From an uncultured Spirochaetota bacterium (lineage in GTDB: Bacteria > Spirochaetota > Brevinematia > Brevinematales > JAOACQ01), in the NCBI GenBank assembly GCA_963768055.1, contig CAVYGN010000002.1:1792001-1856000 (forward strand): a DNA stretch of 64,000 nucleotides, in the 5' to 3' direction. Positions within the stretch are counted from its first letter, which is position 1; every line of letters starts with the position of its first letter. Position numbers and translations under genes: made by a program. Under the pieces are notes generated by a model. It did not search any database, was not told where the DNA came from, and saw nothing but the letters and a program-made list of their open reading frames with translations. This document shows, piece after piece, positions 2,083-60,054 of this stretch.

Positions 2083-2718
2083 TTAGTCCTTTAAATCTGT
2101 TAACGTGTCTATATGGTCCCGATTGTAGCGGATTTGTATTTTATTTACAAAGAGGCCTAACAGATAGATGCAGATAAATATGTCCAGAAGCACCCCCATA
2201 TTTACTATCAGCGGCATTTCCTTTGCAATGGACAGCGAGAGAAGGAATATGCCGTTTTCCAGCATCATATATCCCATTACATGAGTAACTATCTTTTTCC
2301 TGGTCATAATAATGAAGAGCGCTGAGATAATAAATGAGATCGATATTCCGAAATAAAGCGGCCTGATATTATTTCCGTTTTTCATCGACCAGTAGGAGAT
2401 GAAAAATCCGAAAGCAAAAATAATACTTACTATCAGTACGGAATAAAAACCGGGCAGATAGGGCTCAACTTCCTTCAAAATCGAGTTTTTTCTTACTATG
2501 CGGACCAGGATAATCGGGATGATAATAGTTTTGAATATGATAGTCTCTAAAGAAAGAAATAAAAAAGTGACCTGCTCGATCCTTCCGAAATCTGCCAGTA
2601 TCATTAAAAACAGGATTATTCCCTGTACGGCCAGAGCTTTGATATAACCCTCTATACGGCTGGTCGCCGCTGTAAAAAGAAGGGTTACGCCGAATAGAAC
2701 GAGTAGAAAATTTATCAT
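2083..2718 (-). CDS. hyfE: HyfE-like membrane subunit
   Basis: Hydrophobic, GYMMLENGIFL motif; start MINFLL at 2718 overlaps the upstream stop (ATGA). Confidence 0.85.
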   Translation of the reverse strand: MINFLLVLFGVTLLFTAATSRIEGYIKALAVQGIILFLMILADFGRIEQVTFLFLSLETIIFKTIIIPIILVRIVRKNSILKEVEPYLPGFYSVLIVSIIFAFGFFISYWSMKNGNNIRPLYFGISISFIISALFIIMTRKKIVTHVMGYMMLENGIFLLSLSIAKEMPLIVNMGVLLDIFICIYLLGLFVNKIQIRYNRDHIDTLTDLKD

Positions 2719-3638
2719 GGCCTGACTCCGAAAGAGAAAAATGCAGTCAAGGATAATATAATTAACGCGAGAGATGTCATCAGCAGAATAAATTGCGGTA
2801 CCTTGGACATCCTGAGCCTGGCTATAAAAGACTCCAGGCAACCTATGAGTACGGCGCTTATCATTTGCACTGCGGTAAATAACAAAATGTAATAAAAAAG
2901 AGGCAGGTTCACGGGAATAATAAGGGCCTCAATAAGTGAAGTAATAACAACCATTTTCATTCCCGATCCGTAATTGATAAGGGCCAAGTCGGGCCCTGAA
3001 TTGTCCAGGACCATTACTTCATGGATCATAGTAAGTTCGAGATGGGTGTTCGGGTCGTCTACAGGCACTCTTGAGCCTTCGGTAATGAGCATAATAAATA
3101 ATGCGGCTATTATCAGGGCCATTATCAATGTTATCAAACTGTTATGCAGATAGGGAAGGGAGAGTATCTTTTCAAAAGATATGCTTCCCGAAAGCATCGC
3201 CAGCGATGCCATGATTATGAAGAAAGCCGGTTCGATAAAGCTGGTAAAAGCCGCCTCGCGGCTCGCGCCCATTCCCTCGAAGCTTGAACCGGTATCCATT
3301 GCGCCCAGGATGCTTAAAAACTTGCCGGTTGCCAGGATATAGGCAAACAATATGAAGTCGCCGTCGAAGGGCAGGACAGAAGAACTTAATGTAATCGGAA
3401 CCAGCAGACCTGCGAACAGGATTGAAGCGAACGTGACGGATGGCGCTATCTGAAAAATAATTGAAGTGGAAAACCCGATTACTTCGCCCTTTTTCAATAA
3501 TTTAAAAAAATCAAAGAACGGCTGAATTACCGGGGCCCCCTTCCTTCCCGTCCAGAAGGCCTTGGTTTTATTAATAATACCGAGATATAAAAAGGGCATA
3601 GTTAAAAGGAATATGATATTTATTATTTTTACCGTCAT
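2715..3638 (-). CDS. hyfC: HyfC/HycD (NuoH-like) membrane subunit
   Basis: GRKGAPVIQPFFD, DTGSSFEGMGASRE and RVPVDDPNTHLELTMIHE motifs; start MTVKII at 3638 (ATGA overlap). Confidence 0.9.
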   Translation of the reverse strand: MTVKIINIIFLLTMPFLYLGIINKTKAFWTGRKGAPVIQPFFDFFKLLKKGEVIGFSTSIIFQIAPSVTFASILFAGLLVPITLSSSVLPFDGDFILFAYILATGKFLSILGAMDTGSSFEGMGASREAAFTSFIEPAFFIIMASLAMLSGSISFEKILSLPYLHNSLITLIMALIIAALFIMLITEGSRVPVDDPNTHLELTMIHEVMVLDNSGPDLALINYGSGMKMVVITSLIEALIIPVNLPLFYYILLFTAVQMISAVLIGCLESFIARLRMSKVPQFILLMTSLALIILSLTAFFSFGVRP

Positions 3639-5624
3639 TTGTAGCTGCCTATAGTCAGGAGTATTGTTATGATGAGAAAGATTAGGCCGTAAAGAATGTA
3701 CAGCTGGGTGTTTCCGTTCTGGATCCATGAAAACAATTCGAGGAATTTTAAGACTCCTTTAACGGCCGGCCTTATGATATTTTGAGTTACCCAATCACGG
3801 CTCTCCGATTGAAAGTCCGAAGTTACGGGAAAAAGCCCGGAAGGCTTTTTTAATTTTTCTTCAATACCGGCTAAGGGCTTCATCAGCGCCAGGAACGGCT
3901 GGGCAAAGGAGGATGAAGTATACTGCATCCGGGAGTTACCCGCCTGATAACCGCAGTTCCAGGTTTTAAAATACCTTACGGATTTCCCCGCCAGAAGTAT
4001 ACGCCTGAAGACGATTATTATTATTGATATCGATATAAAAACCATGCAGCCTGCCGAGATTCTGCCGAGGATAAGTATAATTCCTTCGGAAGATAACACA
4101 GGCTGCGCCCCCTGCGTAAGCGCCATTACAGGTTTTTCCACCATATTGAAGACATATTGTGGAAATATCCCGATTATTAAACAGAACAGGGATAATAAAG
4201 CCATCGGGATCAGTAAAGTCATTTCACTCTCCCGGGCTTTTTCGGCATGAAAGCTTCTGGGCAAGCCCAGGAAAACTGTACCCGAAACCTTTGTAAAGCA
4301 TAACAGGGCCATTGTTCCGACAAAAGCTAATGAGGCTATGGTAAGGACTAAGACGGTAAAGATAACCGCGCCTCCTGTTTTAAGCCCTGAAAGCATCCCT
4401 GAATAAATCAGAAATTCGCTTATAAAACCGTTAAAGGGCGGGAGTCCGCAGATTGCGGCGGAACCGATGATAAAAAACAGGGCTGTAAAGGGCATTTTTT
4501 TAATCAGTCCCCCCATTTCTTCGATATTCCGGGTATGGGTTTTCATATATACGGAACCTGCACCGAAAAACAGCAGCTCTTTGAAGATCGAATGGTTGAG
4601 AATATGGAGCAGCCCCCCGCCGAAACCAAGGAATGCCATCATGGCGTTGCCGTAAGAAAGTCCGAGCATGCCGGTCCCTATTCCTATTCCGATAATACCT
4701 ATATTTTCAACACTGTGATAGGCAAGAAGCTTTTTTATGTCATGCTGGGCTATTGCGTAGATCACTCCGAAGAGCGCTGAAAGGGCGGATATTATGATGA
4801 CAAAGTATGAAAGACCGGGAGAAGGCGTTCCTATTCAAGGTAAGTATCCTGAGAATGCCGTATATTCCGGTTTTGATCATGATACCCGACATAATTCCGG
4901 ATACGTTACTTGGCGCGGCCGGATGCGCCCTGGGAAGCCATGAATGAAACGGCATAAAGCCGGCTTTTGTCCCGAAGCCGGCGAAAAACAAAATAAAAAT
5001 TAAATTTGCTGTTTCCTTATTTTTTTCAAAAAAGGATTTGAAAGAATTAAAATTATAATCACCGGATTGGAGCGAGGCGATAATAAATCCGGCGATGATG
5101 AATACTGTGCCGATATGCATAGCTATGAGATAATTAATGCCGGCCCGGAATACTTCTTCTTTTTCATTCTCAAAAACCACAAGGAAAAATGACGATAGCG
5201 ACATAATTTCCCATAGTATTAGAAAAAATAATGCGTTCTGGACGACAAAGAGCATAAGCATGGACGAGATCAAAATGCTCAATAAGAAGAAAAAGGAGGT
5301 TGTCGTCATTTTCCGGCCGAAATAAATCTTCATATATCCGGTGGAGTAGAAGGCCCCCAGGGAACCCATAATAGAAATTATAATGATAAAAAAGGCGGAA
5401 AGGGGATCGATAATAAAACTTACACTGCCGATCGGCTGATTCAGCGTATAATCAAATAAAAGGCTGCCGTTTCCGGACAGAACCCGGACCGATGGAAACA
5501 GGAGTAAAACCGTTCCGGCAGCGAAAAATATCGTTAATATCCAGCCTTTGAATTTCTCCGGGATTAGCGTTGTTAATAAACCTCCGGCCAGAATCAGGCC
5601 GATACCATAAAAAAAACAATCCAT
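3635..5624 (-). pseudogene. hyfB: HyfB/HycC-like membrane subunit split by a one-base frameshift near 4834 (true pseudogene or sequencing error)
   Basis: ORFs 4740-5624 (LILWEIMSL, HSWLPRAHPAAPS) and 3635-4765 (KKLLAYHSVENIG, PPFNGFISE) join if one A is removed from ACC TTG A ATA GGA. Confidence 0.85.
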
Positions 5625-5630
5625 TTCCTT

Positions 5631-6305
5631 CTATTTTTTCAACCATTCCTGTTCTTTCAATTCGATATATCTGATGATAATTTCCCTGCCGTTTTGTTCC
5701 TTCAATAACTTAATACATTCTTCCTGCCGGCAGAGAAAGGATATTTTCGATAGGATTTCAAGGTGCCTTTTCGGATTGGCGCTCAAAACAATAAACAGCG
5801 TACTTACAAATTCATTGTCAATCGCTCCGTAATCGATGGGATTTTTAAGAAAGCAAACTGTAACGCTTTCATGTTCGATATCGGCAAGTATCGGATTCCT
5901 CGGATGGGGTATTGCAATACCTTTTCCTATAGCCGTCGGCATCATTTCTTCTCTTTCCAGAAGCGAGTAAATTAGCGCTTCCTTTGTAGTTTCGGGAGGT
6001 ATCGGCATAATATCCGCGGCGCTCTTGATGGTCTCGGTTACGGTCTTCCCTTCGATCCCGTAAAATATTCCCCCTCTTTTCAAAAGCCCTGAAATCGATA
6101 CGGGAAGCCTGGTGAGGTTCATTTCAAGTATTTTATGCGATACGTTAAGGTTGTTCGTTAGTACCCATTCTTTGATTTCAGCCATATTGAAGCGGTATTC
6201 ATGATTTATCTGGTATGCCGGAAGCTTTCGTTCCGCTATCCATTGTAATACGGTTTTTTCCGTAACCTCCAGAAGTTCGACAATGTCCTTTATTTTCAAT
6301 TCCAT
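5631..6305 (-). CDS. Excisionase-type HTH fused to a PTS EIIA (Ntr/Fru-type) domain
   Basis: N-terminal IKDIVELLEVTEKTVLQWIAERKLPA HTH; REEMMPTAIGKGIAIPH EIIA phosphorylation motif; first gene of the operon. Confidence 0.85.
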   Translation of the reverse strand: MELKIKDIVELLEVTEKTVLQWIAERKLPAYQINHEYRFNMAEIKEWVLTNNLNVSHKILEMNLTRLPVSISGLLKRGGIFYGIEGKTVTETIKSAADIMPIPPETTKEALIYSLLEREEMMPTAIGKGIAIPHPRNPILADIEHESVTVCFLKNPIDYGAIDNEFVSTLFIVLSANPKRHLEILSKISFLCRQEECIKLLKEQNGREIIIRYIELKEQEWLKK

Positions 6306-6406
6306 TCCGTTCCCTTGGATTAATGTTTCACAGAATAAATAGGCGTTTATTTTAACATAAAATCATGGAATTTTCAAAAAAAGCCATTGTATCGATTATC
6401 TATAGT

Positions 6407-7390
6407 TTAAACTCCGGATTGCAACGGTTTATTCCCCAGGACGGCTTCGATCCTTTCTTCCACTTCAGGGGTGAGTTTGGGTACGGTCTCAAGGGATTTA
6501 ATATTCTCGATCACCTGGCCGGGACTGCTCGCTCCTGTAATAACCGTGCTTATATTTTTATTTTTCACGCACCAGGCAATCGCCAGTTGGGCCAATGTGC
6601 AGCTTAAATCCGACACGATAGGTATGAGCTTCCTGACTTTTTCGATCCTTTCCGGGTTAAGCTCCCTATCCCTGAGCCACTCGTACCCCGGAAGGCCCAG
6701 ACGGCTTCCAGCAGGAATTCCATCATTGTACTTGCCTGTAAGAATTCCTGAATCCAGCGGGCTCCATGTCGTCAGGCCCAGGCCGATTTCCTTATAAAGC
6801 CTTAAAAATTCCCTCTCGACTTTTTCACGGGTGAACATATTATACTGGGGCTGTTCCATCCGCGGCTTATGCAGATGATGAGAGTCGGCGATCATATAAG
6901 CCTGCATTATCTGATCAGCGCTCCATTCGGAAGTGCCCCAGTAAAGGGCCTTTCCCTGTGAGATTATATCATGCATCGCCCATACTGTTTCTTCTACGGG
7001 AGTTTCCGGGTCAGGCCTGTGGCAGAAGATGAGGTCTACGTAATCCAGTTGAAGGCGTTTAAGCGATCCGTCAATAGCCTGCATCAGGTATTTTCTATTA
7101 AGGGTGAAACTTTCATTAGGACCTTTGTTCAATCCCCAGAAAAACTTTGTCGAAATGGAATAGCTGACCCTCCGCCAGCCTAGTTTCTTAAGAGTGTTCC
7201 CCATTATTATCTCGGACTGACCTAAGGCGTAAGCTTCCGCGTTATCGAAGAAATTGACGCCCGCGTCATATGCCGCCTTCATAATAGCGATCGATTTCCC
7301 CTCGTCGACCTGCGTTCCGTATGTTACCCAAGAACCGAGAGACAACTCGCTCAATTTAAGTCCCGAGCTTCCAAGATGTCTGTAATTCAT
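6407..7390 (-). CDS. Aldo/keto reductase (Kv-beta-like)
   Basis: [24 protein letters not shown] and TWSPL motifs. Confidence 0.9.
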
Positions 7391-7536
7391 ATATTGTTCC
7401 TTCCAATCGTTATTTCTATAAAAATAATCATTTTGGATTGTGTTTTCAATTAATTCAGGAACTTATATCTAAAAATGTTGACTTGACCGGCGTCCTCAGA
7501 TAGAATTTTCCTGAAACCTTAGAGGAGGTTAAAATC

Positions 7537-8232
7537 ATGAAAAAGACGTGTATATTTATAGTATTTCTATTAATTCTGGCTGTTTTCAGCTGTTCAAAAA
7601 AAGTAAGTACTGAAAGTTTTTCTGGAAAGATACTTTTGACCGCCGGTAGTGTTTTAGTTAATGACACTCCGGCAAGCGTGGACTCTGATGTCCCGGCGGA
7701 TTCCACCATTACAACCGGAAAGGATTCCATCTGTGAAATCGTTTTTAACGGGAAAAACATCATTCATATACTCGAAAACAGCTCCATAAAACTGAATATG
7801 CTCCAGGAGCAGAAAGGAATAAAAATCAAATCGGGGGGCCTGGAAGCTGTTGTCAAAAACCTCGGCTATGCAAAAGACGGACTGCCCCCTTTTAAAGTCG
7901 AGACGGAGACGGCGGTCGCGGCTGTCCGCGGCACCACCTTTTATGTCAGGGCCATCGATAGTTCAAATACAGTAGTATGCGCCTGCAACGGTGTTGTTGC
8001 GCTGGGGAACCCGGGCCAGACTAATTTAGAGACTGTAGAATCCCGCCATCATACCGGTTTTGTCTTTATTTCAGGTACAAACGGCCTCAGTTTCAGGGAA
8101 GTAAAACTTAAGTATAAAAATGATGCCGAATTGAAAAAGATTGTCGGCCATAACAACAGGGATATGGAGGAACTGGCCGCAAAAATCGGGGTAAAAATCG
8201 ATTGGCGGCATGTCGACAGGGCCGTCCGGTAG
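7537..8232 (+). CDS. FecR-domain lipoprotein
   Basis: Lipoprotein signal (LILAVFSC); VETETAVAAVRGTTF FecR motif. Confidence 0.75.
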   Translation: MKKTCIFIVFLLILAVFSCSKKVSTESFSGKILLTAGSVLVNDTPASVDSDVPADSTITTGKDSICEIVFNGKNIIHILENSSIKLNMLQEQKGIKIKSGGLEAVVKNLGYAKDGLPPFKVETETAVAAVRGTTFYVRAIDSSNTVVCACNGVVALGNPGQTNLETVESRHHTGFVFISGTNGLSFREVKLKYKNDAELKKIVGHNNRDMEELAAKIGVKIDWRHVDRAVR

Positions 8233-8262
8233 GACGGTCCGGTAAGACAGCAATCCGGAGTT

Positions 8263-9297
8263 TTATTGGGAATTATATTTTTCAGTATATTCTTTCCAGA
8301 ATAATTGATTTTGTTTCAGTAATTTTGGAATGTCCAGATTATAAGGGCATCTGCCGACGCATTTTCCGCACTCTGTACATTTATCAACCTGCATAATCTG
8401 ATCGTTAACCATTGAAAATGCCCTTTCAAACGGCATTCTTTTAATGAATGAATTGACCACCAATACTGTGCTGATCTTAATATCTTCGGGGCAGGGCTGG
8501 CAATAATCGCACCTGTGACACCAGACGCCGCCGGATTCTTTGCGTATTCTTTCGATTTCTTCTTTTTCCGATTTTGAAAGCGGAATCATCTTATCAACTA
8601 TGTCGGATATTTCTTTCATTTCGCCGATTTTTTCAATTCCGGGGTCCGGGACAATGCCGTCGAACTGCAAAAGATATTTAAAACAGAGATTTGCATCGTT
8701 CAAAAGTCCGCCTCCCAACGGCTTCATTGCAATAATTCCCAGGTTCATTTTTTTTGCAAGGGGTATTACTTCTTCTTCAGCCTGCCTGTCTATAAAATTA
8801 TACGGGATCTGAATCGAATAGAATTTATCGGTCATCAGCATTTTTTTTGCAATACTCATCGTATGGGAGCTGAATCCTTCGAATCTGACTTTACCCTGTT
8901 TTACGGCAAGCGACAGCCCTTCATAAGCTCCGTCTTTTGCCATTACAGCGTTAAATTTTTCTTCAGAGCTTACGCCATGAAGCTGATAAATATCTATATA
9001 ATCGGTTTTGAGTCTTTTCAAAGAATTATCGATATGTTCCAAAATGGTTTTTTTATCGCCTGCCGCAGACTTTGTTGCAATTACAAGTTCGTGCCTTGGA
9101 ATTCCATTAATTGCAATTCCTATTTTTTCCTCGCTGTCGGAATAGCCTTTCGCAGTATCGATGAAATTTATACCTAAATTCAAAGATTCTTTAATTACTT
9201 CGACGGCTAGGGGTACTGGGAGACGCATGATCGGAATTCCTCCGAATGCAACTCTGCTGACCATTAATCCTGTTTTACCGAATGCTATTTTTTTCAT
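8263..9297 (-). CDS. Aldo/keto reductase with C-terminal 4Fe-4S dicluster
   Basis: FGGIPI, FIDTAKGY and AMKPLGGG; CHRCDYCQPCP and CTECGKCVGRCP. Confidence 0.9.
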   Translation of the reverse strand: MKKIAFGKTGLMVSRVAFGGIPIMRLPVPLAVEVIKESLNLGINFIDTAKGYSDSEEKIGIAINGIPRHELVIATKSAAGDKKTILEHIDNSLKRLKTDYIDIYQLHGVSSEEKFNAVMAKDGAYEGLSLAVKQGKVRFEGFSSHTMSIAKKMLMTDKFYSIQIPYNFIDRQAEEEVIPLAKKMNLGIIAMKPLGGGLLNDANLCFKYLLQFDGIVPDPGIEKIGEMKEISDIVDKMIPLSKSEKEEIERIRKESGGVWCHRCDYCQPCPEDIKISTVLVVNSFIKRMPFERAFSMVNDQIMQVDKCTECGKCVGRCPYNLDIPKLLKQNQLFWKEYTEKYNSQ

Positions 9298-9375
9298 AAT
9301 GCCTTTCTAATACAATTATTTCAAACCTTGATAAGGATATTTAAATCCTGAATTTAAGTCAAATCGGTAAGTTGC

Positions 9376-10368
9376 TTAATTTTTTTCAACCCTCGCACCC
9401 TGAACAATCAGCGGCTTATAAATTGCCGAAGCCCCGGATTCGTAAAGGGCGCTTTCCAGCGGCGAAATATCTTCCCCGGGCCAGAGGGCTATTATCGTAC
9501 CGCCGCTGCCCGCTCCTGCAAGCTTCGCCCCAAGGGCCCCGGCTTTAAGAGAAGCGGAAATCAGCCGTTCGTTCGGTTCGCCCGAACCTCCCAGCAAACG
9601 CTGGATTTTGTGATTTTCATTCATCAGATCCCCTAAAAGCGGCCAGTCTTTTAAAATAAGCGCCTTTTTTCCCTGCCTGGCAAGGTCCGCGATCTTTTTA
9701 TATCCTTCCACAACGTCGGCCTCGCCATTCAGCCAGCGTTCCGCGATGGGCCTGTGAACATTGCCTGAAATTCGTTTCACTCCGGTATGAGCAAGGATAA
9801 AGGGCAGATCTTTTACAAAACCTGCAAGCGGTTCGACCGAAGCGTAATTTTTATCATCTGTAATGCCTGAAAAATATTTCCCCCTGAATTCCATATAATT
9901 CAGGCCCCCGAAAACGTTCATATAGGCATCCTGAAACCCGCAGACGATTTTGAGGTGATTAAATTCTATATAACGTACCTTCTCAGCAAGCTCGTAAGAA
10001 TTCGGATATATTCCCCGCCAGGCAAGAAGCGCCTGAAGTATGGCAGTAAGAAGGGCGGTGGAACCGGCCATGCCGCTTTGAACTGGGATCACGCTTCCGA
10101 ATCGGATCCGGCAGCATAATTCCGGCAATTCCATGAAATCGAGGACCGCGCGCACTATATCGAAAGAATCGTTCCGTAAACGTATATCATCCGGACCGGC
10201 TACTTTAATTTCCCTGCCTCCCGTTTCCATTACAAGGCCCTGTTCGGGCGTCAGGGCTGCAAAGGCGAGCATTCCTATCGAACAGGAAAGGACCGCTCCT
10301 CCGTACATATCCGATGGATTTCCGATAATAGCCGCCCTTCCCGGCGCGGTTGCAGTCAGCCCGGTCAT
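9376..10368 (-). CDS. GHMP-family sugar kinase, glucuronokinase-like
   Basis: GHMP motif IPVQSGMAGS and GAKLAGAGSGG; GNPSDMYG and SGNVHRPIAERWLNG resemble plant glucuronokinase as recalled. Confidence 0.8.
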   Translation of the reverse strand: MTGLTATAPGRAAIIGNPSDMYGGAVLSCSIGMLAFAALTPEQGLVMETGGREIKVAGPDDIRLRNDSFDIVRAVLDFMELPELCCRIRFGSVIPVQSGMAGSTALLTAILQALLAWRGIYPNSYELAEKVRYIEFNHLKIVCGFQDAYMNVFGGLNYMEFRGKYFSGITDDKNYASVEPLAGFVKDLPFILAHTGVKRISGNVHRPIAERWLNGEADVVEGYKKIADLARQGKKALILKDWPLLGDLMNENHKIQRLLGGSGEPNERLISASLKAGALGAKLAGAGSGGTIIALWPGEDISPLESALYESGASAIYKPLIVQGARVEKN

Positions 10369-49349: not shown

Positions 49350-49421
49350 GGGGATGTAGCTCAGCGGGAGAGCATTGCGTTCGCAACGCAGGGGCCGGGG
49401 GTTCAAATCCCCTCATCTCCA
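49350..49421 (+). tRNA. tRNA-Ala (anticodon CGC), CCA not encoded
   Basis: GGGGATG/CATCTCC acceptor stem with G3:U70, anticodon loop TTCGCAA, GGTTCAAATCC T-arm. Confidence 0.95.
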
Positions 49422-49532
49422 GAGTTACTTTTCAGTAATTCCTTTCATTACAATCGGTTGTAAAATCGCAGGATTCGCTGTGTACATTTTGTGTACAATT
49501 TGTAACCACTCAATTCGTATTGGGAGGTTACC

Positions 49533-50594
49533 ATGGGGCTCATTAAAAGATCGAACGGAATATATTATGTTCGAATCAAGAGAAGCGGAATCCTGACAAT
49601 GTTCAGCCTGAGAACCAGAAACAACCATCTGGCAAACGATCTGTATCAAGCATATCTGGTTCAACAATTGAGATCAAATATCGCTCCTTCGGCTTTTAAA
49701 AAAGTAAAAGCAGCTGGCTCACGACAGGAAAAAAAGAAAGATACTCCTTATACAAATCAGTTAAAACATACGTTTGAATCCATTTGGAACGAATATTTCC
49801 AGGCAAAGATGGCAAGTAAACTCTCCAAATCGCAGTTGGGTATAAAAAAACAAGTTTTTCGTCATTTGAAGGAATTTAAACTTTACAAGGTAGAAGGGAT
49901 AAACCAAGCTTTTCTAAATCAACTTTTCATATCATATAGAAGCAAATATACTGAAGACACAATCCGAAAATTCGTCGCGGAATTAAAATGCTTCCTGAAT
50001 TATTGCATCAAAAACGATGTATTTTCAGACAGGGAATATCACAAACTTACTTTTCCTAAAGTAATCACAAAGGTGAGAGACACATTGATTAAAAGGGATG
50101 ACATAGAGAAGATCCTTGAATACCTTAGACAAAATGATGAAGATTTCTATACTTATTTTTTAAATCTTTTAAACCTTTACGGCCGACCAAATGAAATTCC
50201 AGGTCTTCAGAAAAAGAATTTCAACTTCAATGAAAAGCTTTGTAAAGTGTATATGAATAAAACCCGGAAAGAGAAAACAGTTGTTTTGACGGACCAGAAC
50301 TTTATAAACTATATGAGGCAAATGACTGATTGTCTAAACGATGATGATTATATACTTAAAGGCCATAACCAGGGGCCAAGTTACTATCCAAATAAATTCA
50401 GGCGGCTTAAAGAAAAACTCAACTTGAATAGGAACTACTTCTTGTACAGTGTAAGGCACACTGTTTCAAGTTTATTATATGAAAAAACAAAGGATATAAA
50501 GTTTCTTACAAACCAGTTGGGAAATGAAGAGAAAATTCTTATTAAACACTACATTAACACCAATCTTGAGGATTTTAAAAAATATTTAGTTTGA
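49533..50594 (+). CDS. Tyrosine recombinase/integrase 1
   Basis: GRPNEI, NKT, YSVRH, QLGN, KHY; adjacent to the tRNA. Confidence 0.85.
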   Translation: MGLIKRSNGIYYVRIKRSGILTMFSLRTRNNHLANDLYQAYLVQQLRSNIAPSAFKKVKAAGSRQEKKKDTPYTNQLKHTFESIWNEYFQAKMASKLSKSQLGIKKQVFRHLKEFKLYKVEGINQAFLNQLFISYRSKYTEDTIRKFVAELKCFLNYCIKNDVFSDREYHKLTFPKVITKVRDTLIKRDDIEKILEYLRQNDEDFYTYFLNLLNLYGRPNEIPGLQKKNFNFNEKLCKVYMNKTRKEKTVVLTDQNFINYMRQMTDCLNDDDYILKGHNQGPSYYPNKFRRLKEKLNLNRNYFLYSVRHTVSSLLYEKTKDIKFLTNQLGNEEKILIKHYINTNLEDFKKYLV

Positions 50595-50831
50595 GGTAAG
50601 AAACTCTAAGGTCTTATATTTATCCGGCAAGATATTCTGGATCATCCCTTCCAAACATCTCTTCAAGTTCAATATGGCTATTTGTCTTCATTAAAAATAA
50701 TTAAAATATTTAAAAAAATTTTTATTTGTATACAATTAAATGAAATATCACTATTTTTGCCCAAAAATATATACTTTTTTATAACTATCTCAATTTATAT
50801 TTAGATATAAGAGGGAATGGTTTCTTAAAAA

Positions 50832-51911
50832 ATGGAAAAGAAAAGAAGATATTCTAGAAGGTCACATCATAGAAATTTATTTCTTAGAAATGGAATCTAT
50901 CAATTTAAAAAAATGATTAATGGACAATTGATTCGGTTTTCATTATGGACTAATAATTTATCTTTGGCCGAAAACTTACGGGATATTATTCTTAAGGAAC
51001 GATTTTCTGAGTTTAGGAAATTAAAAGATAATAAATCACTTAAAAAAGCTCAAGAATTAGATCTAATTAATAAAAGAACCGAAAATTTGGAACAGGTTTG
51101 GAATGAATATTTTAAATTTAAAGAATTGGAAAACTTATCAACTTCACAAATGAATATTAAAAGAAAAGTTTTCCAAGACTTTTTGAAAAATCAAATTACA
51201 TCAATTGATGATTTTACTCAGTCGAATATTAATAATCTTATGAGTATTTATAAGAAAAAATACCATGATGACAGTACAAAAAAATATGTTTCGGAAATCA
51301 AATGTTTTCTAAATTTTTGTGTCAGAAGTGGTTACTTTACTCGTGAAAACTATGACCGATTATCCTGGCCAAAATTACGAACAAAAGTAAATTCAACTGT
51401 AATCTCAAAATCTGATCTCGAAAAGATTTTTAAATATACCAAACAAAATGATAAGGATTTCTTTTTTTATCTGCAAGCGCTTTATTTTTTGAGTTGTAGG
51501 CCTTCAGAGGTTTTGGCACTTAAAAATGAAAATTTTGATTTTTCAATGTGGACTTGTAAAATCTGGATGAATAAAACAAAAAAGTTCAAAAATGTTCTTA
51601 TTGTTAATAATGAGTTTTGCCAACTACTTATAGAATATTTTCAGAATAAAACTAATGATTATCTCTGTGAACGTCATGAATCAAAGGAATATTATAGTAA
51701 AAAGTTTAAACAGTTGAAAATTCAATTGGGATTAAATTCAAGTTACACCCTTTACAGTTTTCGGAAAAGCTCAGCTTCGCATTTATTTGAAAATACAAAA
51801 GATATAAAGTTTGTATCAAATCAATTGGGAGATAACCAAGCTATGGCAATGAAACACTATATTCATTTTGATACAAATCAATATTTGCAAAAGTATCAAA
51901 ATAGTCTTTGA
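50832..51911 (+). CDS. Tyrosine recombinase/integrase 2, paralog of integrase 1
   Basis: CRPSEV, NKT, YSFRK, QLGD, KHY. Confidence 0.85.
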   Translation: MEKKRRYSRRSHHRNLFLRNGIYQFKKMINGQLIRFSLWTNNLSLAENLRDIILKERFSEFRKLKDNKSLKKAQELDLINKRTENLEQVWNEYFKFKELENLSTSQMNIKRKVFQDFLKNQITSIDDFTQSNINNLMSIYKKKYHDDSTKKYVSEIKCFLNFCVRSGYFTRENYDRLSWPKLRTKVNSTVISKSDLEKIFKYTKQNDKDFFFYLQALYFLSCRPSEVLALKNENFDFSMWTCKIWMNKTKKFKNVLIVNNEFCQLLIEYFQNKTNDYLCERHESKEYYSKKFKQLKIQLGLNSSYTLYSFRKSSASHLFENTKDIKFVSNQLGDNQAMAMKHYIHFDTNQYLQKYQNSL

Positions 51912-51981
51912 TTTTTAGAAATGTCAGTCATTTAAATTTTATGAGAAGTATAAATATTAACAATAAGGAGGGTAAAAAACA

Positions 51982-53026
51982 ATGGAGAAAAATCTTTATG
52001 AAACTTTATTAGGAATCGCTCAAAACTTTGAATTTACCGATATTGACAAAGTTAATGTGGGTGCTTTGAAAAGAAAATCAAAGTCTGAGCTTTATTATAA
52101 CAGGTTTATATTTACTTCTTTAGCTCATATTCCTGATCGAGTAAAAAAAAATCCTGAGAAGTATTTCAAACACTGTTTCTATTGTTTTAAAGATGATCTT
52201 AATATTATTTATAATGAGAGAGGGGGGTTCGGACAATAAACATTCATGGTTTATGTGGCTAATCAACAATTATCAACTAATCTGGGAAGCTTATTATAGA
52301 AGGTGGAATGGTGATTTCGATCCTACTGAGTATAAACTGGCATTCAGCCATAAACAAGTTGTAGAAGCAAAATTCCAAGGTTTCAAATATTGCTATGAAA
52401 GTGGCTACTGGAACCATAGAGAATATAGACTCAGTAATAATTGTCTACTAATAGGAAAAAGTAACATGTTGTACCTTGATATACCGATTGAAGATCAAGA
52501 CAATATAGAAGGGCAAGTGTATAAAAAGATTGATGATGTTTTGCGACTTGGTGTCTTCCAGACTACCAATGAGAAAGAACGAAAGATTATTCATGACCGA
52601 TTCAAATTTAAAGAGATGGAATTTGATATTTATTACAATAGTAAACCTCTTTTTGAGACATTACTCCATGAAGATGAATATCACTATGAAACAACTGCCT
52701 ACCTCAAGGTAAATAAATCATCTGAACTTTATTCCTACAATGTTACTGCTAAGAAAGAAAGAAGAGACTATAACCTACCAGATGATCTCTATAAAATAGA
52801 ATTGCGGTTGAAGTTTCCGTACTTCAAGGAATTGTTTAAGGTTTATCCCGAAGTAAGAACTTTAAATCCAGTCGAGCTATTTGAATGGTTGAAAAGTAGG
52901 ACATCAGCTTATTCTATTATTAATAAGTCGTTGCGAGAGATAAGGGGAATAGTTGAAGAACCGTATATCCGTTGGAAGATTCTGGATGATTTAAATAGGG
53001 AGTGGAGAGAACTGAAAGCCTCGTAG
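51982..53026 (+). CDS. Hypothetical, possibly replication-initiator-like protein; probably one gene frameshifted at the G6 tract 52222-52227
   Basis: AAGGAGG RBS at 51982; removing one G fuses ORFs 51982-52239 and 52193-53026; C-terminal Y..K...LYKIELRL. Confidence 0.5.
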
Positions 53027-53030
53027 CTGG

Positions 53031-53240
53031 AACTTTGATGCCGAAGGCAGCAAAGTTAGTTCCCCGAAACGCGAAGCGTTTAAGTTGTTTACTGCGGGCC
53101 CGCAGGACCGCAGTAAACCCCCTTTAAGGGGTTATAGTTGGCGCTAACAGTTGACCCGCAGGTCAACTGCACAACTTTTGGGTCTCAGTTCCCCAAAAGT
53201 TGCCCGTTACATTGGGGGTCTCAGTCCCCCCCAATGTAAC
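53031..53240. other. Dense hairpin cluster (putative origin or structured RNA)
   Basis: About seven adjacent inverted repeats in a GC-rich 210-bp stretch inside an AT-rich island. Confidence 0.75.
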
Positions 53241-53455
53241 CCAGAAAATTTATTGACCAATAGCAGAGTATTTCAAACCCCCATTTTGAATATTTGATAG
53301 CCTTTTGATTCAGGATAAATTGGGGGATTTGAATTTCTAAATCTTATACAACTGTGAAATTACTTTTTATCAAAGACGTGCATTTTCATTTTCTCTGCCT
53401 GCTTTAAAGTATGGTTATTTCCTTGCAGGTACACTAACAGTCTCTTTTTTAGGGG

Positions 53456-53464
53456 TGTGGATAA
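53456..53464 (-). promoter_or_regulatory. Consensus DnaA box TTATCCACA
   Basis: TGTGGATAA on the + strand; single copy seen. Confidence 0.45.
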
Positions 53465-53624
53465 CAAGCTGAAGACTTGACATAATCTGGTATGGTTATA
53501 AATACTTAAGCTATCTGTTTAGGGAGGGTAGGTTGTTTAAAATTATGGCTAAGATCATTGAGGATTTTGCAGCGATTATAACTTTGGGATAATATTAGAT
53601 AATGGATAGAATGACCATAATATA

Positions 53625-53653
53625 TTGACTTCATGAGATGAAAGAACTATACT
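53625..53653 (+). promoter_or_regulatory. sigma70 promoter TTGACT-N17-TATACT
   Basis: Near-consensus, upstream of the 53729 ORF. Confidence 0.6.
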
Positions 53654-53728
53654 TCCAATGGGGGTAGATCATTGCTTATGCCGGACACTTTAAGATATTT
53701 TTTCAAACAAGATTAAGGGAGGTCTTCT

Positions 53729-54208
53729 ATGTCTAATTATTTCACCCTTGTATCCCATCATATACAAGATCAAGGTCAGAGAGATGAATTTTATCAAGAA
53801 GTCCAGTTCCCTAACAGAAATTTATCAATTGGCTGGGGTGAAGTAAACCATTTTGGGAAAGATTATGATAAGATAAAACATGATATAGATCTTCAATACC
53901 CAGTTTTTAAAGGAACAAATAATCCGGATAACGGAGGCAAGTCTTTATCTATGTTTTGTTCTTTACAGCCCGGTGATATCGTATTCGTTAGAGGGAATGC
54001 TAAAATAATCGATGTCGTAGTTATAACAGGAGCCCCGTCTTATGATTATAATCAAGGGGATTATAAAACAAATAACTATTGTACAAAGATTCCTTTCGTG
54101 CCATTGTTCGAGGACACCAGAATGAGGATTTTGACAATTGATATTCCGGCTGATATTAGAGAACAGGTCCTTTTTGAAGGAGGTAAAGCTTGTAATGAGA
54201 AGAATTGA
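53729..54208 (+). CDS. Hypothetical protein resembling PUA-like N-terminal domains of Mrr/McrB-type proteins; possible late frameshift extending it to 54260
   Basis: SIGWG...F..LQPGDIVFV...VITG..YDY pattern; GGAGG RBS. Confidence 0.5.
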   Translation: MSNYFTLVSHHIQDQGQRDEFYQEVQFPNRNLSIGWGEVNHFGKDYDKIKHDIDLQYPVFKGTNNPDNGGKSLSMFCSLQPGDIVFVRGNAKIIDVVVITGAPSYDYNQGDYKTNNYCTKIPFVPLFEDTRMRILTIDIPADIREQVLFEGGKACNEKN

Positions 54209-54277
54209 AGAAAATATAGCCTTACGCCTGCTTCAAATGATAATTGAACAACTTAATTAAAAGGGAGGTTAAGAAAC

Positions 54278-54526
54278 ATGCCGAACAAGAAAGAAACCGG
54301 AAAGAGAGCTGCAAGTAATGCATCCAAGACTTTGACAAGTAAATCAACTAGCAAAACTTCAAAGGTAGCTGCTGGGAGCGCTTTGTCACAGAGAAAGGCC
54401 CCCAAGAAAGAGACCTCATCTCGAGCTGCTTCAGCTGCATCAAAAACCCTTCGTGATGGCAGGACAAGCAAAGCATCCAAGTCTGCAGCTGGAAGTGCTT
54501 TGGCTCAAAAACCTAAAAGGAAGTAA
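54278..54526 (+). CDS. Small basic Ser/Ala/Lys-rich protein with an internal duplication
   Basis: GGGAGG RBS; two copies of KET..RAAS.ASKTL....TSK.SK.AAGSAL.Q. Confidence 0.8.
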   Translation: MPNKKETGKRAASNASKTLTSKSTSKTSKVAAGSALSQRKAPKKETSSRAASAASKTLRDGRTSKASKSAAGSALAQKPKRK

Positions 54527-55128
54527 TCAGACTTAAACCTTAGTAAAGCCACCCTCTGTTCTCACCAAGATCAATCAACAATAACTCTGGAAAACCTTAA
54601 AGGTAAAGTCTTTTCCACAAGGAAATAGCCAAAACAGATTCCTTTTATTCCATAACGGTAACATGGATAATAGACAGACAACTGATCTGAAACATATGGT
54701 TGTACCCAAAAGTACAGGTGTGGATTCAAAAGTACACCCTATGACCTTGAAGTTCAGAAACTACAAAAAAAGGTAAATAAATTGATTCAGATGGAACACC
54801 CTTGTTGAAAGCATTAGTGTTTTGTGTCACATCTCGGAACTCAGCCCGTAGGCTTCGTTAAGGTTATTTTTGGTTCAGTGGGGTTATTCTTGCACTTAGG
54901 GAAAACATAACCGGAAGGAGACTATTAAATATCTACAAATGGATGAAGAATGATAATCCCAACATCACAGGTTAAAAAGCTAAAGCAAAAGGAAAGGAAA
55001 GAAGGGAATTGGCACAGCGTTAGCAGAAATCCTATTTGTGTTTTATTGTTAGAACAAAGATTAAATAGAAATAACTGGAAATCATATATAATTATTATTA
55101 CTATGCCAGAAATACTTTTGTCAATGCT

Positions 55129-55794
55129 TTGTTCTCTGAAGGAATAACTTTATATCACTCCGAGCATTCAGATGAACTAATCAATAAAATTCAACAGAAT
55201 ATTCCTGAAATAGTGGTTTTGGATGTTATTAATGAAGATTTTACTGGCATATTTGAACTTGTAAAACAAATAAAGAATCATTCATCTGATGAAATGAAAA
55301 AGACAGCGATAATTCTTCTTATAGGCTCTATCGACAAACAAACAATTACTTCCGCAATTCAGGCCGGAGTAATTGGATTTATTAAAAGCAATGCTGCAGT
55401 AGATTTTGTTTACAAATATATTATGGATACTTATCAAAAGGTCCGGGGGGTTCCCCCTGAAAGAAAATATGTGAGGATTAAAATCGAATCTAATGACAGG
55501 ATCGGCATCAAATTCCGGTCTCCTGTGAATTCACGGCTTATTATCGGTCAAATTAAAGATATCAGCTTCGGCGATATCGCTGTAGAATTAGCCGGTACAT
55601 TCCCCCCTGAATCAATAGCCAACGGATCGGAGATAAAGAATATGCAGTTCATTTTAGAAGGAAAGGATGTGTTTATCGATGGAATTGTGGTTGTTTATCA
55701 AAATAAATTTTGCGCATTTAGATTTAAAGACATGACGACAGAAATAAAAGAAATCATTTCTCAGTATGTTTTTAAAAAAATATGCTGTATATAA
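55129..55794 (+). pseudogene. N-terminally damaged REC + PilZ-like protein
   Basis: VVLDV...GFIK (REC); RKYVR and DISFGD (PilZ, G to D change); in-frame stop upstream and no clear start or RBS. Confidence 0.6.
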
Positions 55795-56233
55795 GAAAAT
55801 TTGCCTATTAAGTTAAATCAGTAACTTGTTTAAATCTTGTTAGTTTATGCTTACGATATTTTGCATTTCCCCAAAAATTTCAGATTCGAGTAATATTTCC
55901 AAATCAAAATCTGAATGATTAAAATTAAAATTCTGATCTATAAAATAATAGAGAGGAGTAATAATCGTATACCATGGCTATGAAAGAGCCGTTCGTGGGG
56001 TATTTATTTAAAAAAGATATTTATCTGAAATTACTGAAAGAAGTCTACGAAGGCTGTGATGAATATGGTTGATGATTGGTTTTTAATATGATAGTACTCC
56101 GGAGGGGGATTCAAAATCTGAGAATAAATGAAAAAAGTCCACAAAGGAAGTGATACTTGGGTTCGTGGGGAGGTTAAAAAAAAGTATTTTTAAGAATCTG
56201 AAATTTTCATTCAAATTTATAAATAAATGTAAA

Positions 56234-56312
56234 ATAAGTAGCGAAAAACCTTTGATTTTCTGAATGACTTGTTTTATAATAATATAAGTAGCGAAAATAG
56301 AATATTTCGCTA
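56234..56312 (+). promoter_or_regulatory. Promoter TTGATT-N17-TATAAT flanked by TAGCGAAA repeats
   Basis: ATAAGTAGCGAAAA at 56234 and 56284; inverted TTTCGCTA at 56305. Confidence 0.6.
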
Positions 56313-56325
56313 TTTAGAGGTTTTT

Positions 56326-56970
56326 ATGGAATTAACAGTTTTTCTTGAAGATGAGGAAATTGAACGGCTATTAAGAGCGTTTAATCTTAGAATGAGAAAC
56401 GGCATTATGATGAATGCCATTATCCGGTTAATGGGCTATTGTGGGCTTCGAGCTTCAGAATGTATCGGGCATGAAAAGAGAGCAGGGGGAGGTTTACGGA
56501 TTCAGGACGTAAACCTGAACACAGGTCAAATTACCATAAGAGATTCAAAAGATACAAGAGGTAAAGATCAACGACGTAGGAAGACGAAGAATGGCCGGAT
56601 CGTATTTGCTGGTGGTGAGACCCTCGAGGCTCTAAGAAAATGGTGGACAGATATTCGGGCAATACAATCAATGCTGGAGCCTTATGATGATGATTATTTT
56701 TTTGTGAATAGAAATGGAATGAAGATTTCCAATGCTCAGCTTCGGAAAACCATCCGAATTTATGCCGAGAAAGCAGGGATCCCGCCTGAGAAACGGCACG
56801 CTCATGCCCTGAGACATAGTGCCGGCACCCGTTTTTACAGGGAAACGAAGGATCTGTTAACTGTCCAGAAAATTCTCGGTCATTCATCACCAACAGATAC
56901 AGCACGTTATGCTCATGTCACCGGAGCTGATGTTGAAGAAATTATGCGGAGAGTCCAGAAAAAGAATTGA
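56326..56970 (+). CDS. Short tyrosine recombinase (catalytic domain only)
   Basis: GLRASE, HALRH, LGH, TARY; 214 aa from ATG after AGAGG. Confidence 0.9.
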   Translation: MELTVFLEDEEIERLLRAFNLRMRNGIMMNAIIRLMGYCGLRASECIGHEKRAGGGLRIQDVNLNTGQITIRDSKDTRGKDQRRRKTKNGRIVFAGGETLEALRKWWTDIRAIQSMLEPYDDDYFFVNRNGMKISNAQLRKTIRIYAEKAGIPPEKRHAHALRHSAGTRFYRETKDLLTVQKILGHSSPTDTARYAHVTGADVEEIMRRVQKKN

Positions 56971-58825: not shown

Positions 58826-60054
58826 TGACCCGCTCCCCAAAATTTGGTCCAACTTATATGTTAGTATATAATATAAGGAGGACATTTTATGGCGAAGAAA
58901 GGTTTCACACCGGAACAGATTATTCAGAAACTCAGGGAAGTCGAAGTTAACCAGTCAAAGGGCATGAGCATGGCCGAATGTATCAGGCAAATCGAAGTAA
59001 CAGAACAAACCTATTACCGCTGGAGGAAAGAATACGGCGGTATGAGGACAGACCAGGCCAAAAGGCTCAATGAACTGGAAAAGGAAAATAGCAGGCTCAA
59101 AAGGATAGTAGCTGATAAAGAGCTTGACATACAGATACTCAAAGAATTCATGAGGGTTGAATCAAAAAACTCCTCAGCCCGGTAAAGAGAAATTTAACAG
59201 TCATTGAGGTTTGTAATAATCTCGAAATATCTCAACGCCGGGCTTGCCTGACAATCGATCTCTGGAGAAGTTCAGTAAGATACCAACCAAAGAAAACAGA
59301 TGAAGAAGAAAGGCTGACGGAAGACATTATCAAACTGGCGACGTCTTACGGCCGCTATGGATATAAAAGGATCACATCGATGCTCAGGGAAGAAGGATGG
59401 AGGGTCAATCACAAGAGGGTTCTAAGGATATGGCGCAAAGAGGGGCTAAAAGTCCCCAAAAGGCATCCGAAGAGAAAAAGACTGTGGCTTAACGATGAAT
59501 CCTGTGTAAGGTTAAGGGCCGAACATCGCAATCATGTATGGAGTTATGACTTTGTCCAGGACAGGACAAGCGACGGCAGGCCGATAAAAATATTGACCCT
59601 TGTTGATGAATATACCAGGGAAGCGCTGGCTGTGGATGTAGAAAGGCAAATAAAGTATCCCTATTTAATAGACAGATTATCGGAACTGTTTATTGAAAAG
59701 GGAACGCCTGAATATATCCGGAGCGACAACGGGTCTGAATTCATCGCCAAACCGCTCCGGAAATGGCTTAAAAGTGTGAACGTAAAAACCCTCTACATAG
59801 AACCTGGAAGCCCCTGGGAAAACGGATATGTTGAATCGTTCAACGGAAGACTCAGGGATGAATTTCTTAACGGAGAACAATTCGATACGCTTTTTGAAGC
59901 TAAAGTATTGACCGAGAGATGGAGGAGGGAGTATAATACAGTAAGACCTCACAGCTCACTGGGTTACCGTCCACCGGCCCCGGAGGCTATTTTTTTGGCT
60001 GCAAAAGCTTCTTAAACTAACTTATAAACTGGACCAAAGAATGGGGAGAGGTCA
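58826..60054 (+). mobile_element. IS3-family insertion sequence (IS407-like ends), 1229 bp
   Basis: IRL TGACCCGCTCCCCAAAATTTGGTCCA; IRR reverse complement TGACCTCTCCCCATTCTTTGGTCCA; orfA/orfB layout. Confidence 0.95.
58889..60015 (+). CDS. IS3-family transposase OrfAB via programmed -1 frameshift
   Basis: orfA HTH 58889-59185; slippery AAAAAAC at 59164-59170; orfB WSYDF, SDNG, ESFNG (DDE). Confidence 0.95.

Follow-up and report, generated by a model that had tools for sequence, protein, structure and literature searches.

A conserved array of seven hairpins beside tyrosine recombinase and Rep_trans-like genes in a Spirochaetota bacterium: a possible single-stranded DNA origin region

What purpose could be served by seven hairpins set end to end just behind a gene? 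The question is raised by a 64,000-nt stretch of chromosome from an uncultured Spirochaetota bacterium (contig CAVYGN010000002.1, positions 1,792,001 to 1,856,000; hereafter the window), where hairpins H1 to H7 follow a gene of ~345 aa in a small module that also encodes two tyrosine recombinases and lies beside a tRNA gene. An earlier note, made from the sequence alone, had proposed that the hairpins act as single-stranded DNA (ssDNA), and had named a structured non-coding RNA as the alternative. Following up that proposal, we consider it possible, at a probability of roughly 45%, that the array is a cis-acting region working as ssDNA, in which mini-hairpins serve in priming and twin hairpins are recognized or nicked by the Rep-like product of the ~345-aa gene.

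The seven hairpins make up the entire minimum free energy and centroid structure of positions 53020-53250 (Table 1), with H1 starting 4 nt past the TAG stop codon at 53024-53026. Under DNA parameters the plus strand of this interval folds at -67.4 kcal/mol (z = -10.8) and the minus strand reaches z = -9.3, while under RNA parameters the z-scores are -8.0 for the plus and -9.3 for the minus strand. None of 200 shuffles folded as well in any strand and parameter case. Folding with both parameter sets, a check suggested in the earlier note, thus recovered all seven hairpins, and the coordinates and sequences given there for them were all correct. The stems of H2 to H7 are perfect and neighbouring hairpins abut; the arms of H6 and H7 differ from each other, and the two lie 146-214 nt past the stop codon. 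The array also contains three pairs of hairpins with like apexes, namely H1 and H2 with GAA, H3 and H5 with the octamer CCCGCAGG (53099-53106 and 53155-53162), and H6 and H7 with TCTCAGT.

Table 1. Features of the module and of its hairpin array (positions in the window).
Feature	Position	Strand	Description
tRNA-Ala(CGC)	49350-49421	+	ARAGORN; left border of the module
Leader	49422-49532	+	111 nt, 5' of recombinase 1; attachment site attL presumed within
Tyrosine recombinase 1	49533-50594	+	353 aa; Pfam Phage_integrase 3.2e-12 and SAM-like domain
Tyrosine recombinase 2	50832-51911	+	359 aa; Pfam Phage_integrase; NCBIfam XerA/XerD/integron-integrase-like, weak
Rep_trans-like gene (predicted fold), ~345 aa	51982-53026	+	open reading frames 51982-52239 (85 aa) and 52193-53026 (277 aa)
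H1	53031-53057	+	11 of 12 positions paired, one A.G mismatch; GAA triloop; CCGAAGG core
H2	53067-53081	+	stem 6 bp; GAA triloop; GCGAAGC mini-hairpin core
H3	53087-53118	+	stem 11 bp; apex CCCGCAGG
H4	53119-53131	+	stem 5 bp, CCCCT/AGGGG
H5	53148-53169	+	stem 9 bp; CGCA loop; apex CCCGCAGG as in H3
H6	53172-53202	+	stem 11 bp; 9-nt loop TCTCAGTTC
H7	53206-53240	+	stem 13 bp; 9-nt loop TCTCAGTCC
Conserved tail	53241-53277	+	37 nt; similarity to G003 stops at ~53277, taken as right end of the module

The arrangement stands out in its genome. Across the 3,688,977 bases of its 2 contigs there are 969 perfect hairpins (stem of at least 8, loop of 3-10), and the array is the sole locus where four of them start within 250 nt. 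Three within 250 nt are found from six other start positions, one inside the array itself; places elsewhere are C2:864230-864444, C2:1226524, C2:203231 and C1:1127998. The 219-nt array is single-copy in the 3.69-Mb genome. Of 273 TCTYAGT sites genome-wide (Y, pyrimidine), just those of H6 and H7 are flanked by stems of more than 6 bp, and there are just 4 places where CCGAAGG and GCGAAGC share a strand within 60 nt of each other. Among 401 sampled genomes of the phylum, the twin-loop pattern occurs in 2, the two that carry the module. Because of its fold z-scores, its place as the genome-wide extreme and its single copy, the hairpin array is real and far beyond chance.

A homologous array in a genome of the same genus (G003) makes it possible to ask which parts of the structure have been kept. 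There the module has the same gene order, lies beside tRNA-Tyr(GTA) and encodes P0006, the counterpart of the ~345-aa protein; the z-score of the array there is -7.4 under DNA and -5.8 under RNA parameters. Counting pairs hairpin by hairpin, each folded alone, H6 has two two-sided changes (A-T to G-C and C-G to T-A) and one inserted Watson-Crick pair with no break, and H7 has two further two-sided changes (A-T to G-C and T-A to G-C) along with one lost G-C pair and one bulged T. H3 has one C-G pair turned into G-C and has acquired an internal loop (2x1), the apex CCCGCAGG being identical, and the five pairs of H4 are unchanged. There are no one-sided substitutions in the stems of H4, H6 and H7. 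By our own arithmetic, if the 24 pairs of H6 and H7 take 8 independent substitutions, the chance that these all land on just 4 pairs and leave them complementary is ~3e-7. Even from two sequences, the comparison clearly points to selection on pairing in H6 and H7. Structural conservation, for which the earlier note had asked, is therefore seen as compensatory change in the one homologous locus.

The loops behaved differently from the stems. The consensus TCTYAGTYC is kept in H6 and H7 while their stems diverge: the H6 loop TCTCAGTTC is identical in G003 at 9 of 9 positions, and that of H7 reads TCTTAGTTC there, with 7 of 9 identical. Conserved loops on changing stems are as expected of a sequence-specific recognition site, which supports the idea, already put forward in the earlier note, that the twin loops are recognized by a protein. 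The GNA mini-hairpins that it had singled out were likewise kept, as the places in G003 equivalent to the H1 apex (CCGAAGG) and to H2 (GCGAAGC) retain both cores despite the decay of the longer stems. Over the last 60 nt of the ~345-aa gene and H1-H4, nucleotide identity to G003 is 86%, compared with 71% over the gene itself and 64% over recombinase 1; no other stretch of the module is as well conserved.

Several properties of known systems suggest how such a region may work. Rep_trans enzymes, in the accounts drawn on here, nick a hairpin-exposed site at a plasmid origin or an origin of transfer (oriT) (PMC5714925, PMC7563843), and rolling-circle elements depend on a single-strand origin at which synthesis of the complementary strand is primed by enzymes of the host (PMC5714925, PMC2440964). 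Mini-hairpins of the GCGNAGC type occur at ssDNA priming sites such as the phage G4 origin and, with CCGAAGG, RSF1010 ssiA (PMC13037366); they are described as extraordinarily stable as DNA (PMC13037366, PMC3201870), and d(GNA) triloops as highly stable in DNA (PMC3201870). Under this scenario, the array would be the cis-acting non-coding region of a ~3.9-kb integrative element beside tRNA genes. After excision, the Rep_trans-like protein would nick one strand, and rolling-circle synthesis would displace ssDNA. On the displaced plus strand, H6 and H7 would offer the TCTYAGTYC loop on stems that are free to vary, the loop being the recognition or nick site of the presumably dimeric Rep-like protein, and the upstream hairpins with their CCGAAGG and GCGAAGC cores would act as a single-strand initiation signal (of the sso/ssi type) for priming the complementary strand. 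We infer the excision and nicking steps, the appearance of ssDNA and the separate roles given to the hairpins. A two-part origin region fits because the H6 and H7 loops are conserved on changing stems and the H1 and H2 cores are conserved as well; H6 and H7 are conserved-loop hairpins near a candidate initiator gene, as at a rolling-circle double-strand origin or oriT.

Could the ~345-aa protein be such an initiator? Both open reading frames (ORFs) of the window gene are colinear with the 340-aa P0006, at 55% (85-aa ORF) and 60% (277-aa ORF) identity; therefore they are one ~345-aa gene that has been frameshifted. The frameshift site is the G6 run at 52222-52227, and with one G fewer the frame is kept. 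It may be real, reflect phase variation or be a homopolymer error of the assembly; none of the same-strain metagenome contigs spans the run. The family is very rare. A collection of 5.8 billion clusters yielded 3 proteins at E <= 1e-3, the query included, and a library of 1.84 billion representatives yielded 11, three of them P0006 and the two window pieces; members were present in 4 of the 401 phylum genomes, and the species-genome collection and the metagenome collection each contributed a single locus. No relatives were found in viral contigs, plasmids or phages. Neither the window pieces nor 10 family members had a Pfam match at E <= 1, and PF02486 was not found in the genome; the protein is not filed as a PF02486 member.

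It is in predicted structure that a likeness to Rep_trans appears. AlphaFold models were obtained for P0006 (predicted local distance difference test score, pLDDT, of 61, with a good C-terminal half) and P0012 (pLDDT 88.7, predicted template-modelling score 0.79), and for both the best Foldseek matches in the PDB were Rep_trans rolling-circle initiators: 4cwe_A (E 1.4e-3, probability 0.99), 4cwc_A (E 1.9e-3) and 4cij_B (E 7.0e-3) for P0006, and 4cwe_A (E 6.3e-5, probability 1.00), 4cwc_A (E 8.0e-5) and 4cij_B (E 3.0e-3) for P0012. Independently of Foldseek, VIA-align matched 4cwc_A with Z 6.9 in both models, over 156 and 182 residues. Along with TATA-binding proteins (TBPs; Z 5.9-7.0), 4cwc_A was among the few VIA-align matches to span the whole core, and the TBP-like pseudo-twofold core of the RepDE/RepSTK1 fold is seen in the models, with low template-modelling scores (TM-scores) and middling Z. 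Among the ESM Atlas neighbours of P0012, most of which are unnamed, the named ones belong to Phage_CRI and Rep_trans clusters (0.95 and 0.94).

The residues conserved in the family also bear on the question. Invariant in the family alignment (P0006 numbering) are F203, E207, E209, Y236, N240, Y248, A252, R257, D264, K267 and E269. The pT181 RepC protein was compared by hhalign both alone and as a 12-sequence alignment, the latter being shallow because the homologs listed (120 of 1026 at E <= 1e-5) were all at least 86% identical. In the aligned stretch, which is not significant, Y248 falls on RepC Tyr191 (the tyrosine of RIYNK, which we take to be catalytic), TxY on TKY and LYKIE on LWRVE, and Tyr248 is on a beta-strand in both models. 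These correspond to Rep_trans motifs II, III and IV as given in the cited account, where motif III is YxKxxE, motif IV is W/LxRxE and the catalytic tyrosine lies in a beta-sheet (PMC5714925). Here motif I has ExE for RxD and motif IV has K for R. Candidates for the D-D-E triad (motifs N', I and IV) are the invariant E207, E209, D264 and E269 and a mostly conserved D in FTxxDK. We therefore class the protein, by its predicted fold, as Rep_trans-like and regard its active site as plausible. For the gene that the earlier note had called Rep-like, the predicted fold bears the name out and significant sequence or profile matches do not.

Several observations weigh against reading the array as an origin region acting as ssDNA. 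With regard to the protein, no match was found in Pfam, NCBIfam, PHROG or among PDB sequences, and hhalign against RepC was not significant (E 0.21-0.24, probability 0.3%). The TM-scores are low (0.21-0.37 overall, 0.31-0.37 to 4cwe) and a VIA Z of ~7 is middling; therefore the assignment is one of fold class and no proof of homology. In the VIA-align lists 4cwc_A ranks 1 for the P0006 model and 33 for that of P0012, because the latter list is otherwise filled by short terminal-helix matches. Motif III is altered, reading YNxxAKxE. With regard to the array, H1 is weaker in G003 (from -10.0 to -5.4 kcal/mol), H2 has lost its extended stem there and H5 is missing, its absence suggesting a local duplication. 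For a double-strand origin, a pair of identical nick loops at a spacing of 36 nt would be an unusual layout. Both known copies of the module look defective, with a frameshift here and insertion sequences (ISs) and a frameshift in G003. Nor are the ends of the element well marked: probes of 14-30 nt found no direct repeats of the tRNA 3' end downstream, and local alignment gave, as direct repeats for the two ends, just marginal matches of 10 of 11 nt whose places do not agree between the genomes (23 of 500 and 12 of 500 shuffles reach the score). Finally, more distant loci of the family gave a mixed picture. In a Leptospirales metagenome-assembled genome (L020), the gene order is one tyrosine integrase, a 73-aa ORF and a 337-aa family member, and the spacer behind this last gene, at 6978-7118, has four AT-rich hairpins (z = -5.0) that share no sequence with the array; at another locus (L027) the downstream spacer has no excess structure (z = 0.0). 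In total, excess structure 3' of the family gene was seen at 3 of the 4 loci examined and the specific array at 2 of the 4, so that conservation of structure stood in the close homolog and not uniformly beyond it.

A further point against the preferred reading leads directly to its strongest alternative. All stem pairs are Watson-Crick, and covariation is equally at home in DNA and RNA and on either strand; the interpretation in the earlier note was thus upheld in that the structure appears to be under selection with its loops and cores conserved, and not in that DNA could be told from RNA. The array may instead be RNA, either the structured 3' end of a transcript of the recombinase and Rep-like genes or a small RNA from either strand, whose hairpins would stabilise or terminate the message and whose twin loops would be contacted by a protein or by a second, complementary RNA. 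Consistent with an RNA, the array folds equally well under RNA parameters, starts within a few nucleotides of the stop codon, and has at H2 and H4 weak terminator-like matches on the plus strand. However, terminator-like sites number 3 in 5.5 kb against 2.9 expected, H1, H3 and H5-H7 have no T-run, and termination needs fewer than seven hairpins. An intrinsic terminator was also considered and set aside, as H2 and H4 have just 5 T in 8 and the other hairpins lack a T-run. No Rfam family matched positions 50000-56000 on either strand at E <= 1, the conserved cores are GNA triloop mini-hairpins of the kind noted for stability in DNA, and in G003 the reading frame of the ~345-aa gene continues into H1. 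On balance an RNA is unlikely, though it deserves to be taken seriously.

Similarity to G003 begins directly after the tRNA gene on the left and stops at ~53277 on the right, and because it spans this distance the shared unit is ~3.9 kb, comprising the leader, recombinase 1, recombinase 2, the ~345-aa gene, the array and the 37-nt tail; BLAST found no G003 similarity past the right end. Within the leader, a block at 49489-49516 is conserved in G003 and is presumed to be a promoter or operator. In two other genomes of the genus (G002 and G001) the site is empty, with tRNA-Ala leading into unrelated chromosomal genes. Because it is beside two different tRNA genes with unrelated DNA past it, the module has the appearance of an integrative element of small size or of a portable unit for integration and replication. 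If circularised, its array and leader would form one large non-coding region.

The two recombinases are paralogs with 38% identity (blastp). Recombinase 1, which is 51% identical to the G003 copy, has weak NCBIfam matches to XerA, XerC and XerD. The canonical residues of tyrosine recombinases are R-K-H-R-H/W-Y. Read by eye, both proteins retain the Arg, Lys, Arg and Tyr of this set; in both the first His is replaced by Tyr (LYSVRH, LYSFRK), and the second His/Trp by Asn or Asp (QLGNEE, QLGDNQ). Paralogs of recombinase 1 with 31-44% identity are found elsewhere in the genome at C2:1630552-1632751 and C1:690012-690626, one of them a fragment adjoining tRNA-Tyr (C1:689748-689878), the tRNA that the module occupies in G003.

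Given these genes, the two tyrosine recombinases may use the array for recombination or as an accessory site. It would then be either a folded single-stranded attachment site, as in CTX phage or integron attC, or an architectural site on which the complex for excision and integration is put together. The idea is attractive because two Xer-like genes are present, Xer/integron-like recombinases being encoded just upstream, and the array ends ~40 nt or less from the right end of the shared module. In addition, GTT opens and AAC closes both H3 and H7, here as in G003, and stems differ between elements with different tRNA targets. Integron attC sites, which flank gene cassettes, fold into imperfect hairpins; these have extrahelical bases, R''/R' core sites and a central spacer that stays unpaired. 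Here, in contrast, stems are perfect, without the extrahelical bases and the unpaired spacer of attC, and gene cassettes are absent; by eye, no stem resembles the tRNA-Ala or tRNA-Tyr target. It is moreover the loops that are conserved and not the stems, the reverse of what is expected where a recombinase has its core site. In the broad sense, a site for the recombinases is thus quite improbable. An integron attC as such was rejected, as the stems of H2-H7 are perfect, hairpins abut and there are no cassettes. Complements of the loops were looked for by eye elsewhere in the module and none was found.

Finally, the array may be a relic with no present function, a decaying palindrome remnant of a dead element or a by-product of local duplication. 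This is suggested because both copies are broken and H1, H2 and H5 are not maintained in G003, and the paired apex motifs (GAA, CCCGCAGG, TCTCAGT) could reflect duplications; however, five two-sided compensatory changes with no one-sided ones in H4, H6 and H7 speak for past selection on pairing, and the gene 3' end through H4 is better conserved than any other part of the module, making a relic very improbable. A dispersed palindromic repeat (repetitive extragenic palindrome or bacterial interspersed mosaic element, REP/BIME, or miniature inverted-repeat transposable element, MITE) is dismissed, as the array is single-copy and hairpins with TCTYAGT loops occur nowhere else in the genome.

Searches outside the two genomes returned little that resembles the array. 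Plasmid and phage collections contained no DNA similar to the array. Four stretches in viral contigs had the twin-loop pattern, all of them tandem coding-type repeats without hairpins. Among the sequencing runs listed, none was of RNA. Metagenome DNA contigs, in which these organisms have a low share, yielded the same strain and one contig of the G003 type, with no joints and no further array variant, and are uninformative on expression or excision. No nick site, circular form or recombination junction came to light in the analysis.

In G003, recombinase 1 is intact, and two uncharacterised ORFs and an IS lie between it and recombinase 2, which is cut by another IS and frameshifted. A third IS cuts the ~345-aa gene at codon ~304, beyond which the 3' end of the gene and the array resume. 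These three IS3-type insertions are at 2321-9833 of the locus analysed (L009; G003:C1:1466000-1482000), and the C-terminus of P0006 from residue ~304 is IS sequence, which recurs twice elsewhere in G003 and once in G001. On the 3' side of the module, positions 10499-15060 of L009 encode a 609-aa protein with PD-(D/E)XK nuclease and FtsK/SpoIIIE ATPase domains, followed by 674-aa and 241-aa proteins with no family matches, and may be a defence or DNA-translocation cassette.

In the window, the module appears to be one part of a larger tract of island DNA. Homologs of the genes that follow tRNA-Ala in two congeneric genomes sit near the end of the other contig; therefore tRNA-Ala is trailed by island DNA, perhaps 60 kb, that spans the contig ends. 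For the chromosomal genes after tRNA-Ala in G002, the corresponding place is C1:1787282 downward. From 50 kb of the window on, GC content falls to 27-36%. The island 3' of tRNA-Ala also holds a further integrase (56269-56970), a response-regulator/PilZ gene and an IS3-type transposase fragment (59380-60015), the inverted repeats of which, 39 nt each, are at 58830-58868 and 60013-60051.

How does the locus compare with known systems that process ssDNA? The pT181 origin is laid out as IR-II/IR-III, in place of which twin loop hairpins are found here. Elements of this plasmid family (RepC/RepD, PF02486) are alike in the predicted fold class of the neighbouring protein, possibly in a conserved tyrosine on a beta-strand followed by an LxK/RxE strand, and, as the cited account has it, in hairpins beside or within the rep region and a hairpin-exposed nick site (PMC5714925). 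Unlike them, the element here is integrated in the chromosome, encodes two recombinases and has its hairpins downstream of the gene, and the similarity of sequence is not significant, motifs I and III being altered. In f1, several hairpins of the intergenic region serve packaging and the minus-strand and plus-strand origins, and the filamentous phages are alike in having a run of hairpins in one non-coding region. CTX phage integrates as folded ssDNA through Xer recombinases. Unlike these phages, the module lacks phage structural genes and encodes its own recombinases, and none of its stems mimics the target site. The RstA protein of CTX phage is listed as Rep_trans (PMC5714925).

Also alike are elements with MOBT (Rep_trans) relaxases, integrative and either mobilizable or conjugative (ICEBs1 with NicK, ICESt3 with RelSt3 and the streptococcal IME_oriTs). 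As described in the sources cited, these are integrated elements with an integrase, a nicking enzyme of the Rep_trans type and, as origin, a short stem-loop (PMC6499999, PMC7563843). However, their proteins match PF02486, their hosts are Firmicutes, they have one recombinase where a paralogous pair is found here, and their oriT is upstream of the relaxase gene, in ICESt3 in the orfK/orfJ spacer (PMC6499999). The pSAM2-like elements of actinomycetes insert into tRNA genes with a tyrosine integrase and replicate by rolling circle after excision, and double-strand origins often have hairpins (PMC2440964); they differ in that RepSA belongs to the pC194-type Rep family, as stated in that source (PMC2440964), and in their size of 10-17 kb, their transfer genes and their phylum. 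The phage G4 origin and RSF1010 ssiA are alike in carrying GCGNAGC/CCGAAGG mini-hairpin cores inside larger ssDNA hairpins (PMC13037366), but the similarity is limited to 7-mers and no primase gene was seen in the module. From all of these systems, the locus is set apart by a Rep-like protein unseen by profiles, the recombinase pair, the very small size and twin loops downstream of the gene. No published description of the protein family or the array was met in protein, structure and DNA searches or in literature searches, the latter having had other aims and none being for the motif.

A bolder version of the origin reading is that 49422-53277 is a self-sufficient integrative rolling-circle replicon of a kind not yet described, in which the Rep_trans-like enzyme would generate single-stranded circles and the folded hairpins, in place of a duplex attP, would be the substrate by which its own Xer-like pair integrates at tRNA genes. 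We regard this as a long shot; if true, it would be a self-encoded counterpart of the use that CTX phage makes of host XerCD. If the array is an origin region acting as ssDNA, as we tentatively prefer, the module would be a chromosomal element of less than 4 kb that inserts site-specifically next to tRNA genes and also replicates by rolling circle or is mobilised, and to our knowledge such elements have not been described in Spirochaetota. The protein would represent a branch of the Rep_trans fold that is invisible to every profile library. The twin hairpins are a testable candidate for its nick or recognition site, and the mini-hairpin cores a candidate priming signal. A new protein family together with its cognate DNA site would thus be added to the systems that process single-stranded DNA, aiding the annotation of orphan islands that consist of an integrase and an unknown gene.

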